Source of the DNA: Enoplolaimus lenunculus
Taxonomy: Eukaryota
Assembly: GCA_030248215.1 (NCBI GenBank)
Contig: JASANG010001128.1
Coordinates: 1-64,000 of the forward strand
DNA: 64,000 nucleotides
Direction of reading: 5' to 3'
The notes beneath the pieces were generated by a model. It was not told the DNA's origin. It saw nothing but the letters and a program-made list of their open reading frames with translations, and did not search any database. This document shows, one piece after another, positions 42,201-63,216 of the stretch (the stretch's first letter is position 1; every line of letters begins with the position of its first letter). Made by a program: the position numbers and the translations under genes.

Positions 42201-45200
42201 CAAAAGGCAGACTTGTCTTTTGCAAAGAATTCAATAATGTAATAGGTTATGATCCGGATGGTTACCCAGGCAGGGTTTTGGCGTTGGTGGTGAAAAAGAA
42301 CCACGCCGTAACAGCAATGGTTTACGCTGGGTGGGAATATATGTAATTCAACCCGTGCGGTACGTGTTATTAAATCTTTGAAATTAGACTACATATGAGA
42401 CTTATGCCCAGACCCGTAGCCAGCTCACCATGCTAGGGGGAGCCTAAAAATTTTCCACAAAGGGCATACAGTTATTTTCGTCGGCTTACAAGCATGAAAA
42501 TTTTCTAGAGGGGGTCGAAATTTTTTACAGTGGGGGCAATAACATTAACGAGTTATATGTAACGAAAATTACTCTTTCCCGTCATACCAACTGGCCCGTA
42601 TCCAGCTCAACATGCTAGGGGGGCTTAAAATTTTCCAGGAGAGTCATACAATAATGTAAATGCCACAAAATTAAGAGACACCGCAATAGCATTAGCAGTC
42701 AGAACAATGTTTCCATCGTTTTAAATTTTTACTTCACTAAAATTTTGTTTGCTTCTGACCCTGCCATGAAGGGTTATACTGCGCCCCACTTGCGAATTTT
42801 GGCTGCAGGTCTGGCTGGTAGCAGAAAAAAATTGCTGTTTTTACGAAACAATTTCGCTCATGTGCATGCGTAGAGCGATCTTTACAGTTTATCTTTAACG
42901 TAAATCTATTCGCGCTGTCAAGAACTTCAATTTATATCATAGTTTTCGTTTCCGGCCGGCGAAACTAAAACTATACTGCGTTTTAAACGACTTGTACGTA
43001 AACTAAAAACATATGGTTGACTAATAGTGTATTTCTCAAGATTAGTAGATGGTATTGGAATCATGGCGGTTGAGTCATGTCATCTAAAAAGTTATGACAC
43101 AATATATTCAGCTTTTGGGCCAATGATACTTTAAGTGGCGTAACAGTAGAAGTAGCGTGTTCCTAAGTCTAAGCCTAAGCCCAAGCGTTGCAAAAATGTG
43201 TTCCTAAGCCTAAGCCTAAGCCTAAACAAAAAATTGTAATCTAGAACTTAAACCCAGTCTTTTATGGACCCACCAGAAACCTGGAGGTCCCTTAAAGTAA
43301 TATGGGCCCAGCTTAACACGAGTCTAATTAAGCTTATTTTTGGTTGAAGCAACCAACCTATCGCACAAATTTGTGTATCTAAAAGTTCATGAAGCTTAGC
43401 GTAAACTAAAAATATGTAAGATTTTAAATTAGTTGAAGTGTAAACCTACCTGTTAGTTCTGTAAATCTAGAAAGTTAGCTTAACACTGCTGAATTAGCTT
43501 AAGCTTACTTCAAGTCAGTTAAGTTTTTATAGAGTACACTCTCATCGCGCTAAATGTAAGAGAAGCTATTAGGCCTTGATTTTAAGACATTTACGTACAG
43601 CAAAATTTGAACAAATGTAACAACATTCTGTGATTATCAGAAACAAACTTGTCTCGATTAGGTATTTTCCGACGTAAACGCGCGGCTTAGCACGTGATGT
43701 CTAAAATAAAATTGGACGAATCTAAAAGTTACTGTTATTCGTGACGATCGTATGAAATGCGGCACACAAAAGCATAAAATAACTCTATAAATGTCCAAAA
43801 TTTTATCCACACCATTGCTTAAACTTTAGAACGGTAACATGCAAAACCTTAGCGTTTACACATTTGTGGTTTTTAAATTTTAACTTTGTCTGCCACTCCT
43901 TTTTCCTTTGAGCACAAATGAAAAAATTTCAAAACTTTTTTGGCTTTGTCAAGGGCATGATGTGAAAAATGTATGTATTCCTTCTGACAGACTCTGGACC
44001 AAACAGTTGTCCTTTAAATAACGTATTGACAATTTAGGTGGGTATGGACGGCAACGTGACCAAGCATAGGTCGTTTAGAGAGAGAGTGTGAGTTGTCAGC
44101 AGGGCCTACACAGGATATGAGTGACATTTGGACATGTAATTTGGAAACAATAAAACTACAGACTTAGGAGCTCGTACGTGGGGACAATTTTTTTACAGTA
44201 GCGTAAACAGTATAACGTGGATGAAACAATAGCAAAATGAAAATTTGAAGGTTTTTTCCGCTTTCACTTATAATTTTGATGCCACTGGTAGATTCAAAAA
44301 TTTCTAACGGTCAAAGCGAAAATGAGTCAGTAGCTATAAATATATACTAAACATTGTCTAAAGTAATAGTATTTTCCTTGCTTGGATTTTACACATTTTA
44401 ACTGGAGATCCCCAACAATTATAATTAAGTGAAAAAATAGGTACACCATCTCTTTGAAAATTTTATTTGCAATGGTCAACGGGGGATAATCCCCAGCCCA
44501 GCATATGGCCAGACTACCCCATCGCCGTAGGGGCCGCTCCTGGTAGCTGTGCAGACAGCCGCAGGTTTTTGCCCATAGGGCTTTTTTATTATAAAACAAA
44601 TACAATAAAACATACGAATGAAAATAACATATAATTATCAAATATTGGCGTTTTACTTCTTTGTGTGGGTATTGTTGCTGACGAACCCTTTCATCTACTC
44701 CACCACCGTATTTCAATATGAAGCGCACGGTTTATACATTTACAAATTGACTCATCTAGCTTCTATTATGTTAACATCCATAAATCTCCAATGTAGTACT
44801 CTTGCTAAATCAAATGTTGCCAGCTTTGACAAAAACAAAGCTCCATTATGGCAACCGTTACTAAACACATACCCCCTATAAATGCCAACTGCATTTATCA
44901 TAAGGGTTCTGTGTTTAAAGTTTATGGGTAATTTAAGGAACAAATAGTCAAAAATATCAAACAAATAAACCATCTGTGCGCTCCATTTAACATTTTTTGG
45001 TGGTATCAGGAGTATTGTAAAATGCAAATTGCTGTTATTTTTATTTATCCATCTAATTTTAAACCCAGCAGCAGCATTCCACATTTCCAACGAACCATTT
45101 CGCCAATCATCATAACATAATTTTTGTTTCTTTGCTTATTCAGTTTTACCCCCACAGTTTACATTTACCAATAACAATATCATTTCAATAATAACAGCAC

Positions 45201-48200
45201 TAAATAATGCGCATATACAAATAAATAAACGCTTATTATCCATTGTTGTTTTTGGGAGCGGTATTTATTCTTTTTAAGTACTTATAGTCCAAAACACTTC
45301 ACGGTTTGCGTTAATTCTAAGCTCACCAGTAAATTCACCCATTGCAAATATTACGATCGGTTTCCCTAATTCTTTTGAAAAGTCAACTGAAAGCTTAACT
45401 TGACCGCTATTGGTCCGCTCAAATAATCACAGTCACTGCTGTGGTCTTTACTTAAATCTACCGAAAATATTTGGTAACCTGCATCGGCCCAAAAGCCAGT
45501 TGCAATTAAACCTAAGTCCTCGTTCCTAAAGTTTAAGGCTTGCAAAGTATGGTAAAAGGCTCTTAAACAATTACCTTGTTTACACGGTAAAGCAACATTA
45601 CAAGGGTAACGATCATCATTCATAAATATAGTAAATCTATCCATATCCGGTAACGAAAATCTAAATAAATTTTTATCTTTCGTGCCGGTATATGCGTCCT
45701 GTGCAATACCCCAAATATGAATTCTTCTAGGCAACGAACCTTCAAAAATTGGCCAGTCTACATTCTGTAACCCTTTATTTACCGAAAGTGTATGCACCTT
45801 AAATCTTATACCAGGTATTCCAATTCCATTATTTGACAAAATTTTAGTTTGGTTTTCTAATGCCTGCTTTGTTAGTTTTGCTTTTGAAACATAAAGTTTA
45901 AAATCATTTATACGAATGGCTAATGGTTTTTTGACTTATGTACTAAAATTAAATTAGGTGAATTACATATAAACTGTAATTCAATTCTCGACTGTGGTGG
46001 TAAATATGAAGGGTTTAAATTTGCATCTAAAACTAAAGGCATGTAAATTTCAGCCTTTCTCGATCCTTGCATTACAGCTAAACGCTGACTACCTCCAATA
46101 TTACCTTGTACAGTTTCAAAAGCAAATTCTGTGTCTGGTGCATAAATACTCCCGGCTAAATATTGGGTTCTTTGTGCTGAATTCATGAACAGCATATGTA
46201 ACGCATATACCATCCACGGGTAATGCTTTTGGTTAAAAGTTATTGGTTCCCCATTAATTTTCATTTCAACCGATGAAAATAAAGCATAACCAAACATATT
46301 ACAAGGCATAAATTCTAAATTACCATCAACATTTGTACCATCAGCGTTCAGTATTTGCAAATCAATATAAGTATACATTCGTGATAAATCAATTAAATCA
46401 AAAGCACTTTCACTAATTTTAAATCTAAAAATGTCATCTATATCTATACTAGGTAGTTGTTTCACATGCAACTTCAATCAACTGTGTCGATGACACTAAA
46501 TCTTGAAATGGGTACTTTTGCAAGCCCCAATTTAATTTTTCTAAACTGCACGCCTTTTGCGCCATTTTTTACGTTTATTAGTAGTTTTCCTACCCTTTTT
46601 AAGCTTTTTCGTTTTTCTCCGTTTCAATAAACGCTTGGTCTCTTTTTTATAAACTACTGCTGAAGCATGTCCGCTTGCATTCAAACATAACGGGCGAGCC
46701 ATATTTTTGCTTTGAAAACTTTGATATATTATCCTTTTTAAGGGTTTTCAGTTGAACCATAATCTCAAAATTAATTCCGAACCTTTATAAAATTTCACGG
46801 GTTTAAATAATGAGTCTAAAATTTCAAATTTCAATGTTTTTACCAAAGGGTTGTTGAGTGTTAAGTTTGTTGCATTTTTTGCACTATCATTGGTTATAAC
46901 AAGTAAAAGTGGTTTGTATTTCCCATTTATTGACCTTTCCTTCACAAACGAGGCCATTATAAACCTTGCTTGGTTTTCTAACAAATTTATCGGCATTCGC
47001 GCAATATGCCGACCGTGTTTAAGTGTCGCATTCCTAGCTTCAGCATATTTTGCATTTCATTTGAAAGTTTAATTTCACTATCGTTTATGCAATAAACGTT
47101 TATTTTCTGGCTTACGGGGTCTAAGGTAAATTCAATATTTGTCGAAAATTGGTTTAAAAATGTAAGTAACTTATCAACTGTATAGTACCCCTCCTCTACT
47201 GTAAACTCTCATCCATGAATCGTTATTAAAATACCTAATGTGGTTTTGTGAAATATTTAAATGTTGTTCAGGTGTTACAACTTCAAGCACTGTAACACCG
47301 CTGGCGCAAAATGGCGTCGTCAAATCAACGATCGGGTTATCTAATTTACACGCTATAACCACCTCCATATTTTATTCATAATTACAAACATTGAACGCTT
47401 TTAAGCATATTATAAGCAGTATCAATACAACAATTATAATCATCGAAACTGTTGCAACCAGTTACAATAACATTTCCAGTTCTAAATATCAATAATACAC
47501 CAAAATGTAAATTAACTTTTACTGGTTCATGAAACGCTCTATATCTATATCGCCAAAGTTCATATACTTTCGGAAACTTTAGCTTTAACTCAGTGTCTAT
47601 CAACCCTACTACATTTCTCAATTGTAACTCATAAATTTCATTTAATTCATAACCTATGCTTTTAAATGTATCTTTTATTTCTGTAATTAATACTTCAGCT
47701 TTATCCATTGACTTAACCCCAACTAAATTCATTTTGCCGTTACTAAACACTAAAGCAGTACCACCTTTTTTAAATTTCCAAATACCACCTGTAAACATTC
47801 TGCTATCATACATAAATGCATCAATTACAATATACAATTCATATAAATCCAAAGTACACATTAAATCACAAGTTACAGTCAAATTAGTTACTGTTTGTTT
47901 CATCTCTAACTTCCATCCAAAGTTTACCTAACGTATTACTCCCGGTCCATTTACTTATATCTCTGCTTAGCTTATCTGTTATCGAAACTCCTATACCCCA
48001 GTAATTATCGTATTCACTTGCTTCTGCAATCACTGCACAACCTGTTTTTACTAATTCCTTTTTAACATGTTCGTGCTGTTGCACTTTCGCTAATAACCCC
48101 TTTTTCATAATATTATTTGCTAGCCCTTCATTTAACCATTTATTCATGTCATAATTCTTAATCATTTTACCTATTTGTTTATGTTGCCTGGGTCTATACG

Positions 48201-51200
48201 CTCTCATTATTGCCTTATATGCTTCATTATCTCCAAAATATCTTGCTTTCTCACTTTGGTACCATTGCTCGTTACAAACATAACATTTACCATCTATTAT
48301 AACCTTACAAATGTTAAAATTACTAAAGGTACTCCAACCCGATTTAAATAAAACCAAAGGCTCACCATTAACATCAAAACAATGAATTGTATGCTCCATA
48401 ATGAATTTACTAAACTTATATTTTCACCTATTTAAGCATTTAATAAAATATAAGTCACACAAGCTTTATTATTAAAATAGTTGTTTCCATGTTTGTTCTG
48501 GTTTGTGTTTGTTCCTACCTCTACCAAATGCAGCTGCGGGTACATTTATCAATAATTTCTCAAATTTTTCTGAATCTAACGGCCTTGGTGGGGAAAAATT
48601 TATATCTGACACAAAATATTTCAATAAATCAAATATGTTTGAACCTACGGTATTATCAGGGTATACCACTTTATTATTTTCATTCAGTTTTAAGTCTTTG
48701 ATGTTTGCAACCATTAACTCACCCTTTTTTCTTAAATTTTTAGGTAACATTTGAATTAAATTGGTTTGCGTTTCTTCAATTACAGTCACCTCAGCTGGTT
48801 GTGTGATTTCAGTGTTTGATAATTTGTTATTTTTTAATGCATCAAGCCAGCTCATCGGCACAACTGCCATTTTACGAGCCATAGTACGTGTCAAAGTATT
48901 TAACTAGTAATTTTACAATTTTTGGTTTCAAAAATTTACGTTTTCTAGCATTTGATACTCGTTTACTAGCAATGTTTTAAGGGTTTGTCTATTTACGCTG
49001 GTATACTCTAAAGCATTGTATGCAATTTCTGAAAATGCTCTCAAAAGCGATGGGGAAGCAAATTTTACAATTAATCGTATAATTTTTGGTGACGCCTCAT
49101 TCAAATATTTTAAAGTTGCTAAATTTTTTGCAATAGCCATTTTTAAAATTCAAGTTGTATGCCAGGCTTTTTAAGCATAAACATAAACAAACATTTGACC
49201 ATCTTCTGGTAAAATACATTCTCTAACTCTCAAGTTTTCATTTGTTGCTGCTTTTAAATCTAAAAATATGTACCCATATGGTTTTACTGTTGCCTGCTCA
49301 AACGCATTTGTTAAAAAGTTAGGTCTTGAAGGCCACATTTGTCTGCCTAGTGTACAAATCATTGACCGATCTCTAAAGTTGGGAAACAGCACCATGTACT
49401 GGGCATTCCTCGTTATAGTTCGCATGTATTTACCTTCATGATACAAATTTTGAGTTACAAAAATAGTACTCAATCTATTATGCCTTAATTTTGAAAATGC
49501 GGCTGCCAATTGTTTATCATTGGCAGCTTCTAACATTAAATCATCTAAAATACATATTGTCTGGTTTTCACTTGTGGGAAACTCATTCGGTATACCCTCA
49601 AACAGCTCTAAATTCGGTATCTCACTTAAAAATTTAGTGTAAATATCTTGAAATATACCATAACAAAACAAAATTTTATCTACTTTTTTATCAAAAAGGT
49701 TACTTTTCAGTAAACGAAACAACCAGTAAGTTTTGCCACAACCCGTCTGACCACTAACAACACATGTAAAAGGTAACTCAAGCGGCAAGCAGCCGTTCTC
49801 TATACAATCAGCTGTAGTTTGCATTTCAAACTGAAAAGTGTTTTGTGTGTTTTGTACCTTAACTCTGCACTTTTTTCTATGTCTATGTAAATGTTGGCGA
49901 CTGGTATAAGCACGAAAACAATTTGGGCATATATAAGCCATTTGTGTAATTAAAACTACTATTACTTTAACCCTTTTTAAGCATTTATACAATGCAACAT
50001 AGTAAAAGTAGCCCTGGTATACCTTTACATGGTAACGTACCCATGTTATACACCCATGTGTACCTTTCAAGTGTTAGTGTACCCCTAAACGTACCCATAT
50101 TGTATTAGCTTACTATATGCACTTCAATAGTTTATCTCACCAGTTGAATATTTGTAGTCTACACGGGTACCATATCTTTTTCATGTACCCACGAATTCAT
50201 TGTGCTGGGGTACCCTAACCATTTTACAAGGTATTCTGTTCCCTTATTAGTCTTGCGTTTTTTCAAAACTTTTTCAATTTTATATTGCTCATCTAAAACT
50301 TTAACCTTTTGTAACTCTTGTGCATAAAATCTACCTAAAATGGGTTCACTGTTTGCATCTGCAATTTCATATACCGCTGGTGTAAACGGTAACTGTTTTG
50401 TAACCGAAAACACTTCACGTGACCATAGTTGGTTAAACCCTCGTTCAAAAGGTACTCTCTCTTTTGATATTCTCACAACATCATCTAACATAAACTTATA
50501 TCTGACATCAATATCTCTTGCGGGAAAAAGTTTTTCTCGCACACTATCCTCATTTTGTTTGTTTACCTGCGCCGGTGTAAATCCATATCTGTTTTCAGTA
50601 TTGTTGTAAGCTTGTACAACTTTTTGCAAATCATCTATGTATCTACCTCTATTTTTGTATGTTAACAGTTTATAAAGCTTTCCTTTAAGTGTTCTAATAA
50701 AACGTTCAGCTATGCTTGCCTTAGTTTCTTTATTTTTTGCAGTGTAAACATTTATATTTCTACTTTTACAGTACTCATATACCAAATGATTCACAAATTC
50801 TTTTCCGCTATCTGTTTGAAAATTATTGGGTTTCGAGTTATCAAAAACTGTTTTTAATGCATCTAAAATAGTATTACCGGTTTTATTTTTTACCGGCACA
50901 ACCCAAACATATTTTGTGAAACAATCTATAACTACCAGTAAATATTTGAACCCATCATTTAAAGTCGATAAATGCGACATGTCTGCTAAATCTGCTTGAT
51001 ACAAATCACCAATACCTTTCACTACAGTTCTCCTACGCTTGAACCTCAACCTACGCGGTTTATGTAGTGTATAAGTCTCTTCTCCAATTAACCATTCTTT
51101 TACATCTCTTAACCTAACTTTAATTCCCTGCTGCCTAGCTTCTTTATAAAGTTTCTTAGCATTTGAAAAACCTGCGACATTTTTTGGGTTATAAAATATT

Positions 51201-54200
51201 TGTTTCAAATGATTATCCATTGTGTTATAAACATACTATTTGCAAACCCTATTTAAGAATTTTATTTGCAATGGTCAACGGGGGATAATCCCCAGCCCAG
51301 CATATAGCCAGACTACCCCATCGCCGTAGGGGCCGCTCCTGGTAGCTGTGCAGACAGCCGCAGGTTTTGCGTTTTTTACTTTTTTTTATTTTTAAAGGCA
51401 CAATTATATTATAAAATCATAAAATATTGCAAAGTTACGGCGATAATATGCAAATTGCTATAATGTACAATCATGATGTCTTCTTTCCGTTTTTCAATAT
51501 GTGGTTTTGTTGACACGCTCCACCACCATAATTTTAAGTGCACGGTCTATACATCTACAAGTTGACTCAAGGAGTTTTTGTTTCCTTATTTTCAAAGTAA
51601 TATTGTTTATAAATAAAAAATTTGCCAGCTTTCATATAAATAAAGCTTGTATATGGCAATTTAACACTGCCCTTTATAAATGCCATTTGCATTTATCAAA
51701 AGGGCCCCGTGTTTAAACGTTTAGCAAACAAATGGTCATAAATGTCAAATAAGCAGACCATCTGTGCAAAAGTTTTTTCGGTGGTATCCGGAGCATTCCA
51801 TATCAAACCATTTCACGAATCGCAATCATGTCTTCAGTTTTACCCCCACAGTTAATAAACGAAGCATGACTAATTATTTCATGAGCATTATTACAAGTTA
51901 TTCATTATTCATTTCATCTAATAAACTCATAAAATCAATATCATTTATACAGTAATGACCATAAGCATACGAAGTTATACCATCATTTAAAATGTGGCGC
52001 TTATCATCGAAGGCACTTAAACCTACTTTGTTCTGGCTTATTGTATGCATTATATGTTTTTCTGATCTGATATATTTCATTAAATGTCTTTGCTTTGTAT
52101 GGTTAAACAAAGCATTTACATAATTTTTATGACAAATATCATTTTTCACTACACATTTTTTAATCCCTTTTGCTCGTTTCTTTTCAGTATCCCCACATTT
52201 TATACTATACATTTTCGATCTAAGCCCAACAAACTCATCAATCGGTTCTCCTGCAGTTTCATCTTTCATTTTTCCCAAAACCTTTTTGTTTTTAGTTGAA
52301 AATAATGGGTGGTTAGGTGGGTAATCACTAGTATCGAAATTATCTTCATTCAATTTTATATCATTATAAATATCCTTAGTTTTTACAGCATAACATAAGG
52401 AGTCAGTATCCGTAAATAACAATTTACATTTATCACCATACATGCTTTTCATATAATCATAATGAAAGTGATACATTAATGATTTTGATAAATCTAATAC
52501 AGTAAAACCGACATATATCGGTTTACATAATCTAATGGTTTTTCTTTGCATTTTAACAGCAACTAGGTTTTCATTGAAAATTTGCGATCTTTGGTATCTA
52601 GGGCTAGCTACAAGTTTTACAAATTTGTGTTCGTCGGTTACTAATTTTATATCTACGTAACCACGAACATTTTCCATTGTTTTCCCAAATACTGCATTGT
52701 TTAACAGTTTAAATAAATCTTTTTCGAAATCACTTTTAGCGCTTTTGCGCATTTCAGTAATAAACCTAATATAAGATTCCATCCAGTCACATTGAAAAAA
52801 TGAAACCACTCTATGAACATGCACTAATTTCAAACCTAAACGTAAGTAAAGTTGTAAATTTTTCAAGTGAACAATATAACGTTTCTTATCATGTAAATTG
52901 GGTACTAACTTATTAACCGAAGTATTATAACGTTCCTTTGAAAAGGGTGCAAGAAAGATTTTTTGGGCAGGGGCTAAAAACATTTCAGGAGGGGCATACA
53001 AAAATTTTCGATTACTTGGCAAGCAAGGTTATGCATTTTTTAGAAGGTTCAAAAAATTTTCTAGGGTAGGCTGAACCCGCCCCTGGCCCCGTCCGTCTAC
53101 GGGTGCGTCACTTACGCATTTGAATAGCGATCAGTGTTTCGGACAGTTTACTGGTCAACAAAGGTTCAGGTAAATCGCGGAAATACTGTTTAACCAAATC
53201 GGCAACATCGTACACTTGTGACGCGTCAAATGATACAAGATCTGAAAATTGCACATTGCACACTTATTTACTGCAATTTTGTGCAATTTGAAATTAGAAC
53301 TTTGAAAAATTTTGCATATTCTTCGACACAAGGACGTAGCCACGATTTCGTTTCGGAAGGAGATAATCACGTATGAAGCGTTCTTTGACCAGAGAGTCAA
53401 GTGAGCGAGAATTTGTTTTTGACATCTGCTGGGTATTCTACAGCGTGTAAAAGGTTCGTTTTCCGAGTCTTTTCGGAAATTTTGGGGGTATCCCCTATAA
53501 ACCTAAATGTATAAATCACTGTGTAGAATGCTTTTCAACGGGGCTTTGCCCTGCTTAGCTCAGTAGTGACGGAGTTATCGTTTTTCAATTTCAGGTCTGC
53601 TTATGTTGTACTTACGCGAATTGCCAGATTCGTTAATGTGTAACAATCTTTACGACGCGTGGATCAGCGCTGTTTGTTTTAAGTAATTAATGACATTAAT
53701 AAAACGAGACAATTTGTGTTCATTTCTTAATTTACTCAAAATATAACAAACAAATTTAAATATTTCATTTCGGAATTGAAATACATCTATTGACTGTTTG
53801 TGATCGCATCATTTTAATCTTTAAAAGACAGAGATAAAAAATGTTCGCAAATGAGCGTAGTCGAGAAAATTTGTTCTTACAGATAGAAGCACAGTAGAAG
53901 GTCAGTATTAATGGCCCGATATGAAGATCAGAGGCGGAATGTTTTCTGAGGGACTGCAGTAGAGTACGGTTAAGCTATAAACTAATGTTGTGCTTCAGAC
54001 TTAATCTTAAGCCATTCTTGGCCGAAACAGTCGTTCAAAATCGTGTATATGAAAGTGTTTTTATCAGTGCCGTGTTTAAGGTATGATGGCCCCCAAAGTC
54101 AATATGAGGGACCCCCTAAAGTCAATTTGAGATGCCCATAAGGTCAATACCCCTACGTTCGAGTTCTTTTTGAGGTCCTATATACTTTACTGGTCGATTC

Positions 54201-57711: not shown

Positions 57712-58023
57712 GAATAGCGATCAAAATACCGGAACCAGAATAGCGATCAAAATACCGGAACCAGAATAGCGATCAAAATACCGGAACCAGAATAGCGATC
57801 AAAATACCGGAACCAGAATAGCGATCAAAATACCGGAACCAGAATAGCGATCAAAATACCGGAACCAGAATAGCGATCAAAATACCGGAACCAGAATAGC
57901 GATCAAAATACCGGAACCAGAATAGCGATCAAAATACCGGAACCAGAATAGCGATCAAAATACCGGAACCAGAATAGCGATCAAAATACCGGAACCAGAA
58001 TAGCGATCAAAATACCGGAACCA
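57712..58023. repeat. Perfect 26-bp tandem repeat x12 (GAATAGCGATCAAAATACCGGAACCA)
   Basis: 312 bp = 12 x 26. Confidence 0.95.
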
Positions 58024-58080
58024 AGACCGGAAACATGACATTAACAGGCGTGGATATGAAGTAGAAATTTGAACGAAACG

Positions 58081-58384
58081 TTGTTTGTTTGTTTATATGT
58101 TTGTTTATTTGTTTGTTTGTTTGTATGTTTGTTTGTTTGTATGTTTGTTTGTTCGTTTGTTTGTTTGTATGTTTGTTTGTTTGTATGTTTGTATGTTTGT
58201 TTGTTTGTATGTTTGTTTATTCGTTTGTTTGTTTGTATGTTTGTTTGTTTGTTTGTATGTTTGTATGTTTGTTTGTTTGTATGTTTGTTTGTATGTTTGT
58301 TTGTATGTTTGTTTGTTTGTATGTTTGTTTGTTTGTTTGTATGTTTGTATGTTTGTTTGTTTGTATGTTTGTTTGTTTGTTTGT
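58081..58384. repeat. (TTTG/TATG)n microsatellite
   Basis: Direct reading. Confidence 0.95.
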
Positions 58385-58755
58385 GAGTTTTGGCACAAAA
58401 ACCGTTTGCTTGTGATCGTCGCGATAAATGCTGTCGACGTCGGCGTCTCAACGAAAAACTCTGATCATTTCTGTACAATCAAAAACGACTGAATTTTGTA
58501 AGACAACGTAATTTTTGACTCATTTGTGAAAACTGGATGGAAAATGTATAATTTACTCTGTGCTTTTATACATTTACACTGTTAAACAAACGAGTGCTCT
58601 GTACGTAAAGCTGTCTTACATGAAGTGTTCCTGTACTCACCCAAAAAGCAAAATAGAGACAAACCCGGATAAGCCCGGATATAACAAAATTTTTTTCTCC
58701 GGTCCCGACAACTCTTCTATATCCGGGTTACACTGTTATTTGTTTCGAAATTTTT

Positions 58756-58962
58756 TTAAAACGCACTCGTGTTATTGTTCGAGCCATAGTTGTTGTTGTT
58801 ATTGTTTTGTGTCGAAAATGCCGTTCGCTCGTCTTGACTGCTACTCCTAACTCGAATCCGGGACGCATGTTGTTGTCCCAGCTGTTGTTGTTGGTGGTGG
58901 TGGTGTTGTTGTCCCAGCTGTTGTTGTAGTTGTTGTTGTTGTTGTTGTAGTTGTTGTTGTAG

Positions 58963-58999
<37 letters not shown>

Positions 59000-59001
59000 A
59001 G

Positions 59002-59041
<40 letters not shown>

Positions 59042-59055
59042 AGTTGTTGTTGTAG

Positions 59056-59086
<31 letters not shown>

Positions 59087-62000
59087 AGTTGTTGTTGTTT
59101 TTGTTGTAGTTGTTGTTGTTGTAGTTGTAAACGTACATGATTCGCTGGTGCCGAAATTGGTTGCCATTGTTGCGTACCACATGTAACATCGTTATCATTT
59201 AAAAACTCTTGATTTCCGTCGTACCCGGCCTTGTTAATTGAAGCTGGTTCAAATTTTGGCTGAGGCAACATTTGTGGCAGATATTGGTTTTGTTGCGATT
59301 GTTGCGTTTGAGGTGTTGCTACACCGTTGTTGTTGTTGTTGTTGTTGTTTCTTAAAGATGTGTTTTTATCTTATATATTAATATCGCTAATAGGGCGAAT
59401 GTTACTTTGACGGGCATAACAGTAGCATAACTGTATTCGTAAGCCTAAGCATCAGCGTAGGCATAACGCTATAATTAAGCTTAAGCCTAAGACGAAGCAA
59501 ACATTTCGTGTAAAAGTTTAGTTTACTCTATTGAATTTTGACCAAAACCACCCCTGCGCACACTGCAAATTCCAATGAGTTGGCTAATCAATTCAACTAG
59601 CGAGTTGGTTATTTCTAAATTAATATCAGTAAACATTAACTCACTCTGAGTTGAGTTGATTCTCACTCTAAGTTGAGTTGACTCTAGGTGAGTTGATGAA
59701 TTAACTCAGAATGAACTGAATCAACTCAAAATTCTAAGTTCTGATAGTTCTAACTCAGACTGAGTGATTCAACTCATTGTGAGTTAAACTCAATTCACTC
59801 AAATTTACAGTGCAGAACAATCGCTTATGTCTCTTATGTCTTGGCGGATACGGAAATTTTCACCAGGGATGCCAAGTGATGTATTATAAGATTGAATACC
59901 TTACGGGCGAAGCGAGCGAGAAACCAAACGCAATTTTAGTCCTAAATCTTAACGATCAATTTCACTTTGATCCTTGTTGAGGAATGATGGTCTATAAATG
60001 GCGTTCCATATTTTGAGTCGTCTAAGTCTGTAGACGACGGTGGAAGCTGAAAAACATGTTAACTCATAAACGATAGCAGCTTACATATAATTATCAAACG
60101 CCGGGTACAGTTGTTGTGATGCCATAGCTGGTGTATTATTGTCGGAATAGCCAGCAAGCGTTTGAACTGTGGTATAGAATCGTGGTTCTGACTCGTAACC
60201 AGTTCCGTATGGGGTCGATTTCATATAAGTTGTTTCAGTGTCGACCGTTGTTGTTTTCGGCGAATCATCATTGGGGTTTATTAATTGAATTTCTTGAACA
60301 ACAATTATTGACTGTCTCATAATAATAATAATAATAATAATAATAATATTAACAACAACAACAACAACAATAATAATAATAGATTGTGAGTGTACTTATT
60401 TGTTTAATTTACCCCACATCAGGGGATAGAACACAAAAGTCCCTCTGTGCACCAGGATGTAAAAACGGATAGTAAACGGAAACAAATAGTGATCAAAATA
60501 GCGGAAACGGATATTGAAGTATAAAAGGTTTAAAGATGTTTTATTTTTCTGCCAACGTAATTGAAGAACGCAAATATTCGCTGGGTTTTCTAAAATTTTA
60601 AAGAAACAAATAGCAGATGCACAGAAATTTTTTGTTAAATTTTGAACGAATTTCGAAAGAACTTGAAATTTGCCAATTACGAAATTTTGATAATTTAACT
60701 TTGTAACCAAGCAAAAACACAGGATCGTAGCCATCTCAGCCTGTTACGGGACAATTTTAAGCTCGACAGTGCCGTTGAAATAACATTGCTTAACAAGCGA
60801 CCGTGAAACTTTTTTTGGAGTGGGCCAAAAAAATTTCTATAGGACAGGGTGCAACCAAAGGTGAAAAATACCGGAGCCGGAGCCGGAGGTTAACAAAACT
60901 TGCCGGAGTCGGAGGTGAGGCGAAATTAGATAGTAACGATGATGGTTCACTAGTTAATTTTAGCCAATATCTGCCATATGTTGTTAATTTGTTTGGTTTT
61001 ACGCTAATTATCTGCGAATTTTTGGAAATTCTTTCCTGAAAATTGCGACAAAAATAAAACGAAACGCGTTCAAACAGATAAATTTTCCAAAATTAAGCAA
61101 AATTTTACTACCAAAATTGCCGCAGAACCTACGGCAAAAATTTTACCGGAGCCGGAGCCGGAGGCCAATTTTCTGCCCGAGCCGGAGGCAGACCTCCGGT
61201 TGTACTCTGCTATATGAAGGATTGTTTCACAGTTGGTCTCACTGTGTCAACGGTTCGACAAAAAAGTAACAAATAGCTCCACGCTAAACATACCCTCGCG
61301 AAAAATATCGTCTACATTTATAAGAAGGCATTCCAAAACAGCGTTGCAGTAGCGATATGGTTCAAATCTGAAAAAACAATCAAACGACTTGTTTCTGTAA
61401 AATCCATGAAAGTTTAGTACTTAAAGAAATTGAAGTCGTTTTGATTTCGTTAAAATTTAGTATTAATTACCATTTATTATACGATCAACCTTAACCCCCC
61501 TTGTAACGTAGAGTAGACTATGAGCCACTTTGCGAAATCCGTATGCCAAAAATTGTACGCAATGCGCAGTATTTAGTAATTAGTACACGTATATGCTACG
61601 CACTAAACCAATCTTCGCAGGAAGTGACGAGTAAACTCGTGCTCGAGTGTCAAGCTCCTATAGCTGGCTGGTGATGGTAAATGCCATAGCATAAGTAGGT
61701 TTCAGATGAAATAGAAAAATATTCATGCGAGAAAGAGATAAGTTACTGGTGATGATAAACGCCTCTCACTCCAGTTTCCGAGGCTTGAATCCTAGCATAG
61801 GTCTCAGATAAAATAGTAAAATATTTATGCGAAGTTTAAAATAAAAAAATTTTGCCTGAAAAATCTGACCGGAGGACCATGATTCACACTCAGCGGAGAG
61901 AAAATGTGGTGACAATTTTGGTCAAAAGATCATCTCTCAAATTAGGAATCAACTCCTGACTCCGAACCTTACCCAGTCGGGTCTGATGATCGTATCAAAT

Positions 62001-63216
62001 CAGGTGCAATAACCATTGCTAAGTTTGAAGCAGTCATTTTGTTTTCAGCAGAATATTTTGCTATTTTAGCAAAAAACATTATCAAATATCTAAAAACACA
62101 CAAAATCTCTAAACTAAATTAACATTAAACTTCTCGTACAGTTGCCCCACAGGCTATAATAGGCTTATGCTTACGCTTAGGTTTCAGAATCGACTTTCTG
62201 ACTCTGAGAACATCAACCTTTGCGGTAGTTTTTGCCTAAGCCTAAAAGCGTTAGGTTTCAAGTGTACAGATGGTGTATAAGAGCCCAAATTTGTTTGGGT
62301 TATTAAGCATTAACCTATGATGAACCAAAAATAATAATCGTACAAATTTTAGCGATGCTATTGGTAAACAACGGCAGCGCTTGTAACCAGGAACTGGTTT
62401 GAAGGATTAAGAAGCCTTATTGACGTTGAAAACATAAATTTTTGACCTTAAAATTGTTTTGATGCAATTGAACAACATTTCGTCCTTGGCTGAGACCACA
62501 TACCATCTTTTGAAACATCGATCCATGTTACTTTTAAACTGTAAATTGCAATGAGTTGATTAATCAATTCAGCTAGCGAGTTGGTTATTTCTAAATTAAT
62601 ATCAGTAACCATTAACTGACTCTGAGTTGAGTTGATGCTCACTCTGAGTTGAGTTGACTCTGGGTGAGTTGCTTAATTATCTCAAAATGAATTGAATCAA
62701 CTCAAAATTCTGAGTTCTGATAGTCCTAACTTAGACTGAGTGATTCAACTCATTCTGAGTTAAAATCAACTCATTGAAATACAGTGTAGGACCGTCCCAG
62801 TTTTTGGTGGGTCTGTAAAATAGTAGGCTTACATTCTAGACTACATTTTTTTGCTTAGGCTTAGGCGTAGGAATATGCTTTTGCAGCGCTTAGGCTTAGC
62901 CTTGGGCTTTAGGAATACGCTTAATCTCTTGTTATGGCCCTACAAGTAACATTGGCCGAAACTTTTAACGAAAAAACAACTAATATGACTCTGGCGGAGT
63001 CGAATTTTGACTCAGTTTGTGTAGTAAGGAAAAGCCTATTTCAAAGAGAGTCAATTTGACTCACTATTTCTTGCAGTGTATCACTCGCTTTGTATAAGCC
63101 ATATACCTTAGTAAACAATTTATGAACTGCGAACGTACTTCAAGTTATCATAATTACATTTCGGCAATTCCTTTACTATTCGCTTCAACGCAGCAACGCG
63201 GTCAGGTCCGTCAACT
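58756..63216 (-). CDS. 3' part of a second RhoGAP gene (paralog) with Q/N-rich C-terminal tail; continues beyond the window
   Basis: Phase-consistent exons 63216-63139 (VDGPDRVAALKRIVKELPKCNYDNLK), 62089-61973 (YLIMFFAKIAKYSAENKMTASNLAMVIAPDL), 61367-61294, 60292-60085, 59350-58756 (polyQ, stop). Confidence 0.85.
60845..61209. mobile_element. hAT-like MITE
   Basis: TIRs CAGGGTGCAACC / GGTTGTACTCTG; TSD CTATAGGA/CTATATGA. Confidence 0.8.

Follow-up and report, generated by a model that had tools for sequence, protein, structure and literature searches.

The window analyzed here, 64,000 nucleotides of contig JASANG010001128.1 from Enoplolaimus lenunculus (assembly GCA_030248215.1), contains a Maverick/Polinton element spanning positions 44450–52960, with the following genes and repeats (L108 is a related alpha-type element):

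51898..52960, minus strand: protein-primed PolB, C-terminal third; the 5' part and the promoter are lost
51249..51797, no strand assigned: direct repeat copy A, whose final part is a GC-rich block of 110 nt adjoining the integrase box
50159..51220, minus strand: retroviral-type integrase with a chromodomain (Pfam rve, E 2e-12; Chromo, E 1e-9)
49171..49941, minus strand: packaging ATPase with an N-terminal C2H2-like finger (Pox_A32, E 2e-6, above cut-off)
48874..49140, minus strand: PW-like ORF, frameshifted in the present copy (weak match to L108 ORF113, pairwise E 0.009)
48472..48882, minus strand: 136-aa ORF, homolog of L108 ORF127, without a box; its start overlaps the tail of the PW-like ORF
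47884..48399, minus strand: NADAR-domain gene (PF08719, E 1e-36), overlapping the TBP start by 20 nt
47382..47903, minus strand: TBP, 173 aa, without an N-terminal tail (PF00352, 69 bits)
46748..47368, minus strand: putative minor capsid gene, broken across three frames (position fits; weak match to L108, E 0.26)
46541..46702, minus strand: basic core-like ORF, 53 aa
45274..46565, minus strand: major capsid protein (MCP) gene, broken across four frames (tblastn to L108 MCP, E 9e-12 and 9e-8)
45136..45243, minus strand: hydrophobic ORF, 35 aa
44450..45016, no strand assigned: direct repeat copy B, at the fragment end; 69% to copy A overall, the last 110 nt being nearly identical

The Polinton identity proposed in the initial annotation is borne out by matches for PolB, the integrase, the packaging ATPase and the MCP. 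The 349 C-terminal residues of PolB are 43–60% identical to Polinton-like PolBs among the best matches, the ATPase clusters with alpha-type ATPases in a tree, three MCP pieces match the MCP of L108, and the gene set as a whole resembles that of L108; the label PW-like was assigned by position and weak likeness. The element shares pPolB, a chromodomain integrase, an A32-like ATPase, the MCP and the PW-like ORF with animal Mavericks/Polintons of the alpha-adintovirus type, as presented in the available parts of PMC8097293 and PMC8502044, and differs from them by the addition of TBP and NADAR genes; moreover, in the present copy PolB is truncated and TIRs and a recognisable protease are missing. 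Since no inverted pair bounds the fragment, we filed it as a defective fragment rather than an intact element; a search for an adenain-like protease gave no match to the L108 protease within this incomplete stretch. In short, the element is a defective, truncated and frameshifted Maverick/Polinton fragment belonging to a multi-copy family. Rfam yielded no match for the GC-rich repeat, whose folding is not unusual.

In eight of the ten genes of the element, the motif CTTAAAWR starts 35–40 nt upstream of the ATG on the coding (minus) strand. These eight sites had been noticed before, and their positions, sequences and distances were all reproduced; they are listed here with a doubtful ninth one:

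51250..51257, minus strand: CTTAAATA, 37 nt upstream of the integrase ATG
49974..49981, minus strand: CTTAAAAA, 40 nt upstream of the ATPase ATG, with TATAAATG adjoining on the upstream side
49168..49175, minus strand: CTTAAAAA, across the ATPase stop, 35 nt upstream of the PW-like ORF
48429..48436, minus strand: CTTAAATA, 37 nt upstream of the NADAR gene
47398..47405, minus strand: CTTAAAAG, within the TBP tail, 37 nt upstream of the putative minor capsid gene
46735..46742, minus strand: CTTAAAAA, 40 nt upstream of the basic core-like ORF
46596..46603, minus strand: CTTAAAAA, within the basic ORF, 38 nt upstream of the major capsid ATG
45271..45278, minus strand: CTTAAAAA, across the MCP stop, 35 nt upstream of the small hydrophobic ORF, with TATAAGTA adjoining on the upstream side
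48897..48904, minus strand: GTTAAATA, doubtful ninth site, 22 nt upstream of the ATG at 48882

The ninth site had been credited with a distance of 34 nt from the ATG at 48870. This distance is correct, but the first in-frame ATG, at 48882, is only 22 nt away, and the N-terminus that it opens is similar, by eye, to that of the L108 homolog. Because of this short distance and because the upstream PW-like ORF covers GTTAAATA with its frame-shifted tail, we regard the site as doubtful.

The weight of the evidence lies in the fixed position of the motif, not in its count. CTTAAAWR occurs eight times on the coding strand and once on the opposite strand of the element, and 24 times on both strands of the remaining ~55 kb of the window; the plain count in the element is modestly above chance (Markov models: mean 2.1–3.7, maximum 6–10, 200 runs each). 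By contrast, when the best 6-mer was sought without bias within a 6-nt band ahead of the ten gene starts, CTTAAA came out in 8 of 10, whereas the controls (500 sets of ten internal ATGs, and the true windows shuffled 500 times) reached at most 4 of 10; the analytic chance of such positioning is ~1e-12 after correction for the search space. Among 40 listed of the ~1250 differences from sibling contigs, a single one falls within a box: the siblings read A at 51251 (W7 of the integrase box), which still fits the motif.

The arrangement of the boxes relative to the genes makes it very improbable that the motif is a by-product of 3' ends or stop codons, such as a polyadenylation-like signal or Leu-Lys codons. 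Such an origin could be suspected from the two boxes that lie across a TAA stop (ATPase, last MCP piece) and the two located within coding regions (TBP tail, basic core ORF), as already pointed out for several copies. However, the motif is tied to the next ATG rather than to the preceding stop: the distance to the former is tight, whereas that to the latter varies from inside the gene up to ~640 nt, the nearest upstream stop being ~640 nt away from the integrase site and ~180 nt away from the ATPase site. Besides, several units are followed by separate AATAAA signals of their own.

This tight spacing, together with the canonical TATA boxes found at similar places in related elements whose examined sequence has no TBP, indicates that the box acts as an element of the core promoter. 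Within the ATPase tree, from which the mis-framed L007 row was disregarded, the sister clade includes the alpha-type elements L108, L096 and L063, with no TBP in their examined sequence. A canonical TATA is present 36–52 nt upstream of 5 of the 12 ORFs of L108 (the other 7 have none), 39 nt upstream of the ATPase in L096 and L063, and 42 nt upstream of the ATPase in L050, which lies outside the tree and has no TBP in the sequence examined; this pattern was picked after L108 had been viewed, and, as contrary evidence, the alpha-type L109/L111 has such a TATA ahead of only 1 of 21 ORFs. Given the similar placement of a canonical TATA before the ATPase gene in these four elements, the box is most likely a TATA equivalent. 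As for CTTAAAWR itself, among 469 ORFs from 39 loci lacking a TBP match, only 1 is preceded by it at −40 to −35. None of 111 loci proved to be a second TBP-bearing element, and single-protein scans for relatives gave no matches with the ATPase and the integrase and L108 only with the MCP.

The TBP gene had been described as lacking the motif. The box is indeed absent, but the TBP ATG (47903) precedes the NADAR stop (47886–47884), which makes TBP an overlapped second ORF. The missing box thus probably reflects the place of TBP behind NADAR rather than an early promoter, and TBP may therefore lie inside the box programme; the NADAR box (48429..48436) likely serves the TBP ORF too, in what would be a bicistronic unit. 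Both the integrase and the NADAR genes also carry the box, and the PolB promoter is lost from the fragment, two points that bear on the possibly late programme suggested in the initial annotation. The possibility of a NADAR–TBP fusion split by a frameshift was rejected, one sibling contig (X3) spanning the junction with only the 15 gap letters described below.

The claim that the element encodes a TBP holds. The 173-aa ORF matches PF00352 in two stretches, with a score to be compared to a cut-off of 22.9 bits, and its predicted structure (pLDDT 95.7), a model built on a TBP alignment, is close to human TBP (1cdw; TM 0.89–0.90, rmsd 1.7). The TBP fold occupies residues 2–171 of 173, so that a separate Pol II-binding N-terminal domain, a trait of herpesvirus vTBPs, is absent. 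A profile search returned cellular TBPs and a protein Atlas search returned TBP clusters only; no close relatives were found by word search or in viral contigs. The best real relative, P0005, is 40% identical over 98 aa, the top match, P0001, having been discarded as a repeat protein.

In TBP, the C-proximal repeat reads the 5' half of TATA, and Pro191 has been suggested to exclude all bases except T at position 1 (PMC1636458, in part). The DNA face of the element TBP keeps both Asn, three of the four Phe and both Leu. In the TBP of the present copy, the C-terminal stirrup carries a gap of five codons, in frame, near 47521, and the fourth Phe and its Pro, i.e. the Phe-Pro pair reading TATA base 1, fall in this gap. 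Sibling contigs (one contig each, X2 and X3) are 15 nt longer there, and a family-wide five-residue deletion was accordingly rejected; in all frames, the 15 additional letters are free of codons for Phe or Pro, which fits C at box position 1. For comparison, among 42 short tail-less TBPs compared as protein sequences, 39 have residues at this site: Phe or Tyr is kept at the fourth-Phe position in 38 of the 39, but, as a counterpoint, the Pro is missing in 12 of the 39. Sequence comparison supports the view that, in the family's TBP, the residues said to read TATA base 1 are different.

On balance, it appears rather probable that CTTAAAWR is a TATA-equivalent core promoter with the element's own TBP as the likely reader, the 5'-reading surface of this TBP being seemingly altered to accept C at position 1. 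The earlier reading of the box and TBP is supported in part, by the core-promoter behaviour of the box, the reality of the TBP and the differences of the family TBP at the base-1 residues; binding of the box by this TBP, its closure to host TBP and a late programme would be further, putative features.

We find it unlikely, if worth weighing, that host TBP/TFIID instead treats the core promoter as a TATA of weak or non-consensus type, the element TBP being otherwise employed, e.g. as a decoy or a TRF2-like cofactor. The register would then be C-TTAAAWAG-G, which resembles an adenovirus major late box whose bases 2 and 3 have changed places, and it entails more mismatches to TATAWAWR (20 versus 16 over the eight sites). 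Cellular TBP supports TTAAAW-class boxes, in yeast mostly TATTTAAA (PMC4457894, available part), and exchanging A and T alters the minor groove only slightly (PMC1636458), but in yeast TATTAAAA falls below 20% of wild type (PMC2396422) and a TTAAAAGCGT site is very weak (PMC4457894). Fixed TTAAAA boxes do exist in two distant elements with no TBP in the sequence examined, L048 (TTAAAA at −30/−29 in 7 of 12 ORFs) and L007 (CTTAAAAA at −30/−32 in 3 of 15 ORFs), and a canonical-like TATA lies directly upstream of 2 of the 8 sites (ATPase, hydrophobic ORF); on the other hand, CTTAAA is invariant in 8 of 8, tighter than the varied TATA boxes of L108. Finally, the family TBP seems to be without one intercalating Phe, a loss that can abolish TATA binding, as in TRF2 (PMC10005294, in part). 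TRF2/TBPL1 likewise combines a TBP fold with a lost intercalating Phe, but it is cellular and does not bind TATA, whereas the element TBP retains three Phe and both Asn.

The motif extends beyond 8 nt, with an A-rich stretch then TG upstream (A 7/8, A 6/8, A 7/8, T 6/8, G 5/8) and GG.T downstream (G 7/8, G 6/8, T 7/8), and these conserved flanks (AAATG, GG.T) hint at an additional factor. We judge it conceivable but improbable that a different sequence-specific factor, encoded by the host, by the lost left arm or by an unnamed ORF of the element, binds the extended motif (AAATGCTTAAAWRGG) and that TBP is recruited through protein contact. The changed stirrup and the missing left arm would suit such a scheme, as would the columns conserved beyond the box, but the spacing matches that of a TBP site and the Pfam search recognised no further DNA-binding factor in the fragment. 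The TBP stirrup also contacts TFIIB. G/C flanks are usual around TATA boxes (PMC1636458), and a precedent for recruitment is herpesvirus ORF24, which acts in a six-protein complex.

If the element TBP is the reader of the box, it would bind in the usual orientation, with the C-terminal repeat over the CTTA half; host Pol II would start ~30 nt downstream of the box, leaving leaders of 5–10 nt, and the integrase, ATPase, capsid, core and NADAR genes would be driven as a single programme. TBP produced from the NADAR unit, as its second ORF, would create a positive feedback, which could be primed by weak use of the box by host TBP or by a TATAAG located at 47959, 56 nt upstream of the TBP ATG. Element TBP should then prefer CTTAAAAA over TATAAAAG, and the preferences of element and host TBP should be reversed between CTTAAAAAGG and TATAAAAGGG. 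More tentatively, and with somewhat less than an even chance in our opinion, the two may form a natural altered-specificity TBP–TATA pair, in which the Phe-Pro enforcing T at base 1 has been replaced, the promoters have been rewritten to CTTAAAWR, and a minimal sigma-factor-like TBP turns on the genes for virion and integration through a feedback loop barely read by host TBP.

C-terminal-repeat changes likewise shift 5'-base recognition in yeast TBPm3 (TGTA) and at Pro191 (PMC1636458). TBPm3 is engineered, however, and the element TBP does not have the TBPm3 residues at the three positions (Leu and Val are kept), its change being at the Phe-Pro stirrup. The vTBPs of beta/gamma-herpesviruses, such as KSHV ORF24, similarly associate a virus-encoded TBP-like protein, a non-canonical box and host Pol II (PMC13345323, available part). 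Yet ORF24 has several domains, binds the CTD of Pol II and requires five further viral factors, whereas the element TBP is a bare 173-aa saddle, and the late box TATTWAA differs from TATA at base 4, as opposed to bases 1–2 for CTTAAAWR.

The novelty claimed for the system must be narrowed. A TBP-like gene in a Polinton-like genome is already on record, as a gene labelled TBP in a MELD virus with an adintovirus-like PolB (PMC8502044, Fig. 5 legend); this is a label only, motif and specificity being undiscussed in the part of that article at hand. The promoter link was not found in the literature searched, the accessible portions of PMC8097293 mentioning neither TATA nor TBP and those of PMC8502044 no promoter. 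Activation of capsid genes in Mavericks/Polintons is essentially undescribed in this literature, and virions of vertebrate elements had not been observed (PMC8097293). With a fixed box and an element-encoded TBP, the system can be tested directly and the virion programme can be marked; should the change in specificity prove true, this would also be a natural example of joint change in TBP and TATA, and the herpesvirus late-gene strategy would have a very small counterpart. The present copy is decayed, and the proposed mechanism would apply to its family, in which third codon positions account for 19 of the 27 coding differences from siblings among those listed, including 2 of 2 in TBP.

The eight CTTAAAWR boxes that lie 35–40 nt before the ATG of eight of the ten genes of the element, a truncated, frameshifted Maverick/Polinton, agree exactly in sequence and distance with the values of the initial annotation, and the box series is a real feature. 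The motif has eight matches on the coding strand and one on the opposite strand of the 8.5-kb element, and 24 on both strands together in the remainder of the window; Markov models gave means of 2.1–3.7 and maxima of 6–10, so that the count alone is only modestly above chance. What stands out from chance is the position of the box rather than the number of copies. CTTAAA was the top 6-mer, at 8/10, in an unbiased search of any 6-nt band before the ten gene starts, and the positional enrichment expected over shuffles was found: 500 shuffles and 500 sets of internal ATGs all reached 4/10 or less, against 8/10 for the true starts, with an analytic chance estimate for box placement of ~1e-12, corrected. 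The conserved motif is wider than 8 nt, with AAATG on the 5′ side and GG.T on the 3′ side. Its description as TATAWAWR, the eukaryotic TATA consensus, changed at positions 1–2 holds, as bases 1 and 2 differ in all eight sites, and the box is very probably a TATA equivalent. A ninth site (48904), assigned to a further gene, is doubtful, since the first in-frame ATG (48882) is only 22 nt away and the site lies within the shifted-frame tail of the PW-like ORF.

For comparison, we fetched 111 Polinton-like loci (797 kb, mostly partial), in which no TBP match was found (best E 0.085); the comparison is thus a TBP-negative arm only. ORF starts were scored in the 39 loci that reach 8 kb or more, excluding L111, which overlaps L109, and including some near-duplicates. 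An equal frequency of the motif in TBP-lacking relatives, which the initial annotation had set against its own reading, was not observed (CTTAAAWR at −40 to −35 upstream of 1 of 469 ORFs of the 39 loci), although A-rich boxes do exist there, in L048 and L007. The sister clade of the element in the ATPase tree consists of L108, L096, L063 and L109. Canonical-type TATA occurs at −36 to −52 before 5/12 ORFs of L108 (ATPase, integrase, minor capsid, core-like and PC4), at −39 before 1/4 ORFs of L096, at −39 before the L063 ATPase and at −42 in L050, and before only 1/21 ORFs of L109/L111. L108 (1–12321), a near-complete alpha-type element with a protease, PC4, canonical TATA boxes and no TBP, is useful as a control.

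L048, distant from the element in the tree, carries TTAAAA at −30/−29 before 7/12 ORFs, and L007, whose mis-framed row was left out of account in the tree, carries CTTAAAAA at −30/−32 before 3/15; both bear a second A-rich block directly upstream of the ATG. Since neither locus has a TBP match, a fixed A-rich box needs no element TBP, a point in favor of a cellular TBP as reader. Yeast cellular TBP can work with TTAAAW boxes, mainly with TATTTAAA; a TTAAAAGCGT site was very weak in yeast (excerpts of PMC4457894), and TATTAAAA dropped to less than 20% of wild type in yeast (PMC2396422). The two-part A-rich signal shared by the Polinton-like contigs L048, L007, L008 and L009 (TTAAAA or AAAAAT ~25–30 nt upstream of the ATG, TAAAA adjoining it) is a different promoter class.

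Contigs from three DNA runs, made on two samples within a single study from which the window itself may derive, span the element from end to end and show many variants; summed depth, which is not a copy number, is far higher over the element than over unique flanks (~620–1770 vs 10–46 in X1, the contig set of one run). The simple reading is that the element belongs to a multi-copy family. Coding-frame differences between siblings fall at third positions in 19 of 27 printed rows (40 rows of ~1250 being printed), an excess that fits purifying selection between lineages. One contig of the X2 set represents another, more diverged family of the same organism, which resembles the element only in patches across integrase and PolB.

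The element TBP matches PF00352 (69 bits) and 35 solved TBP sequences; its predicted model, built from a 43-row alignment that biases it toward the TBP fold, has a pLDDT of 95.7 and a TM of 0.90 to human TBP. The protein lacks an N-terminal tail, and no close relative was found; it falls, without a resolved order, into a grade of 42 TBPs that are short and long-branched. Compared to canonical plant TBP (residues matched by index, in Arabidopsis-style numbering), it retains N27, N117, F57, F74, F165, L72, L163, V119, V161 and T173 and is altered at V29, A58, V80, T82, V171 and K169; basic residues number 20 (vs 28) and acidic residues 19 (vs 14). E146–G150, including F148 and P149, are missing from this copy; sibling contigs (one in X2, one in the third set, X3, none in X1) are 15 nt longer at 47521, so that the gap reflects decay of this copy. 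The 15 extra letters contain no Phe or Pro codon in any frame; the other short TBPs with residues at the gap have Phe or Tyr in 38/39 and Pro in 27/39.

Recognition of the 5′ half of TATA falls to the C-proximal TBP repeat, in which yeast Pro191 has been suggested to exclude all bases except T at position 1 (excerpts of PMC1636458); the Phe-pair kink is set between TATA bases 1 and 2 (portions of PMC10005294 and PMC1935006). As the Phe-Pro of the C-proximal repeat is gapped or changed and the box is changed at bases 1–2, the protein and DNA changes lie at the same end, an agreement that falls short of proof: TRF2, in which one Phe is lost, does not bind TATA (same portion of PMC10005294). We lean slightly toward the element TBP as the reader of the box. 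The contribution of the element is the pairing of a box that has C at base 1 with a family TBP seemingly devoid of the Phe-Pro that reads base 1. A TBP-like gene label is present in a MELD virus in the sections of PMC8502044 consulted, where "promoter" is absent, and neither TATA nor TBP occurs in the consulted sections of PMC8097293; among the papers listed by literature searches, none was on a TBP-linked Polinton promoter. The herpesvirus ORF24 system with its TATTWAA box (excerpts of PMC13345323), of which the element is not a member, serves as a working model.

Two genes have no box: TBP starts inside the NADAR end and the 136-aa ORF inside the PW-like tail, and AATAAA follows each overlapped pair (48470, 47376). 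In this layout both would probably be the second ORF on an mRNA started from a box; the element TBP would therefore feed back on its own synthesis via the NADAR mRNA. Priming may rely on weak use of the box by host TBP or, alternatively, on the following site, which may be a host-read promoter or chance:

47954–47959, minus strand: TATAAG, which precedes the TBP ATG by 56 nt, within the NADAR coding sequence

A late transcription program, as put forward in the initial annotation, is at most a candidate reading, as the PolB promoter is gone from the fragment and integrase also has a box.

On the minus strand the element spans ~52960–44450, in the order PolB C-terminus, repeat A, integrase, ATPase, PW-like ORF, 136-aa ORF, NADAR, TBP, putative minor capsid, basic ORF, major capsid, 35-aa hydrophobic ORF and repeat B; a search around it for terminal inverted repeats found none. 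With a cut PolB and with frameshifts in the PW-like gene and in both capsid genes, the copy in the window is a fossil. The repeats comprise:

51249–51797 and 44450–45016: direct repeat of ~600 nt, 69% alike, final 110 nt GC-rich and nearly identical
44600–45135 and 51500–51880: two decayed copies of one unnamed ORF in the repeat

One repeat copy adjoins the integrase box and the other closes the fragment; the repeat, with no Rfam match and a folding z of ~−0.7, may serve as an activator upstream of the genes or as an end for recombination. The decayed ORF copies did not match the L108 protease. A C2H2-like zinc finger opens the ATPase (49870–49941) and is absent in the six closest homologs of the alignment. 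At 150 nt from the upstream end of the element is a RhoGAP exon bounded by introns, which, taken with the alpha-type gene set, suggests an animal host. Two RhoGAP exon pieces at 53111–53263 and 61972–62118 (minus strand) are in reversed domain order (profile 110–147 upstream of 47–84), for which tandem genes, a rearrangement or an assembly issue are the alternatives. The host DNA also carries simple tandem arrays at 57712–58023, 58080–58400 and 58850–59350 (26-nt unit, ACAA, CAA).
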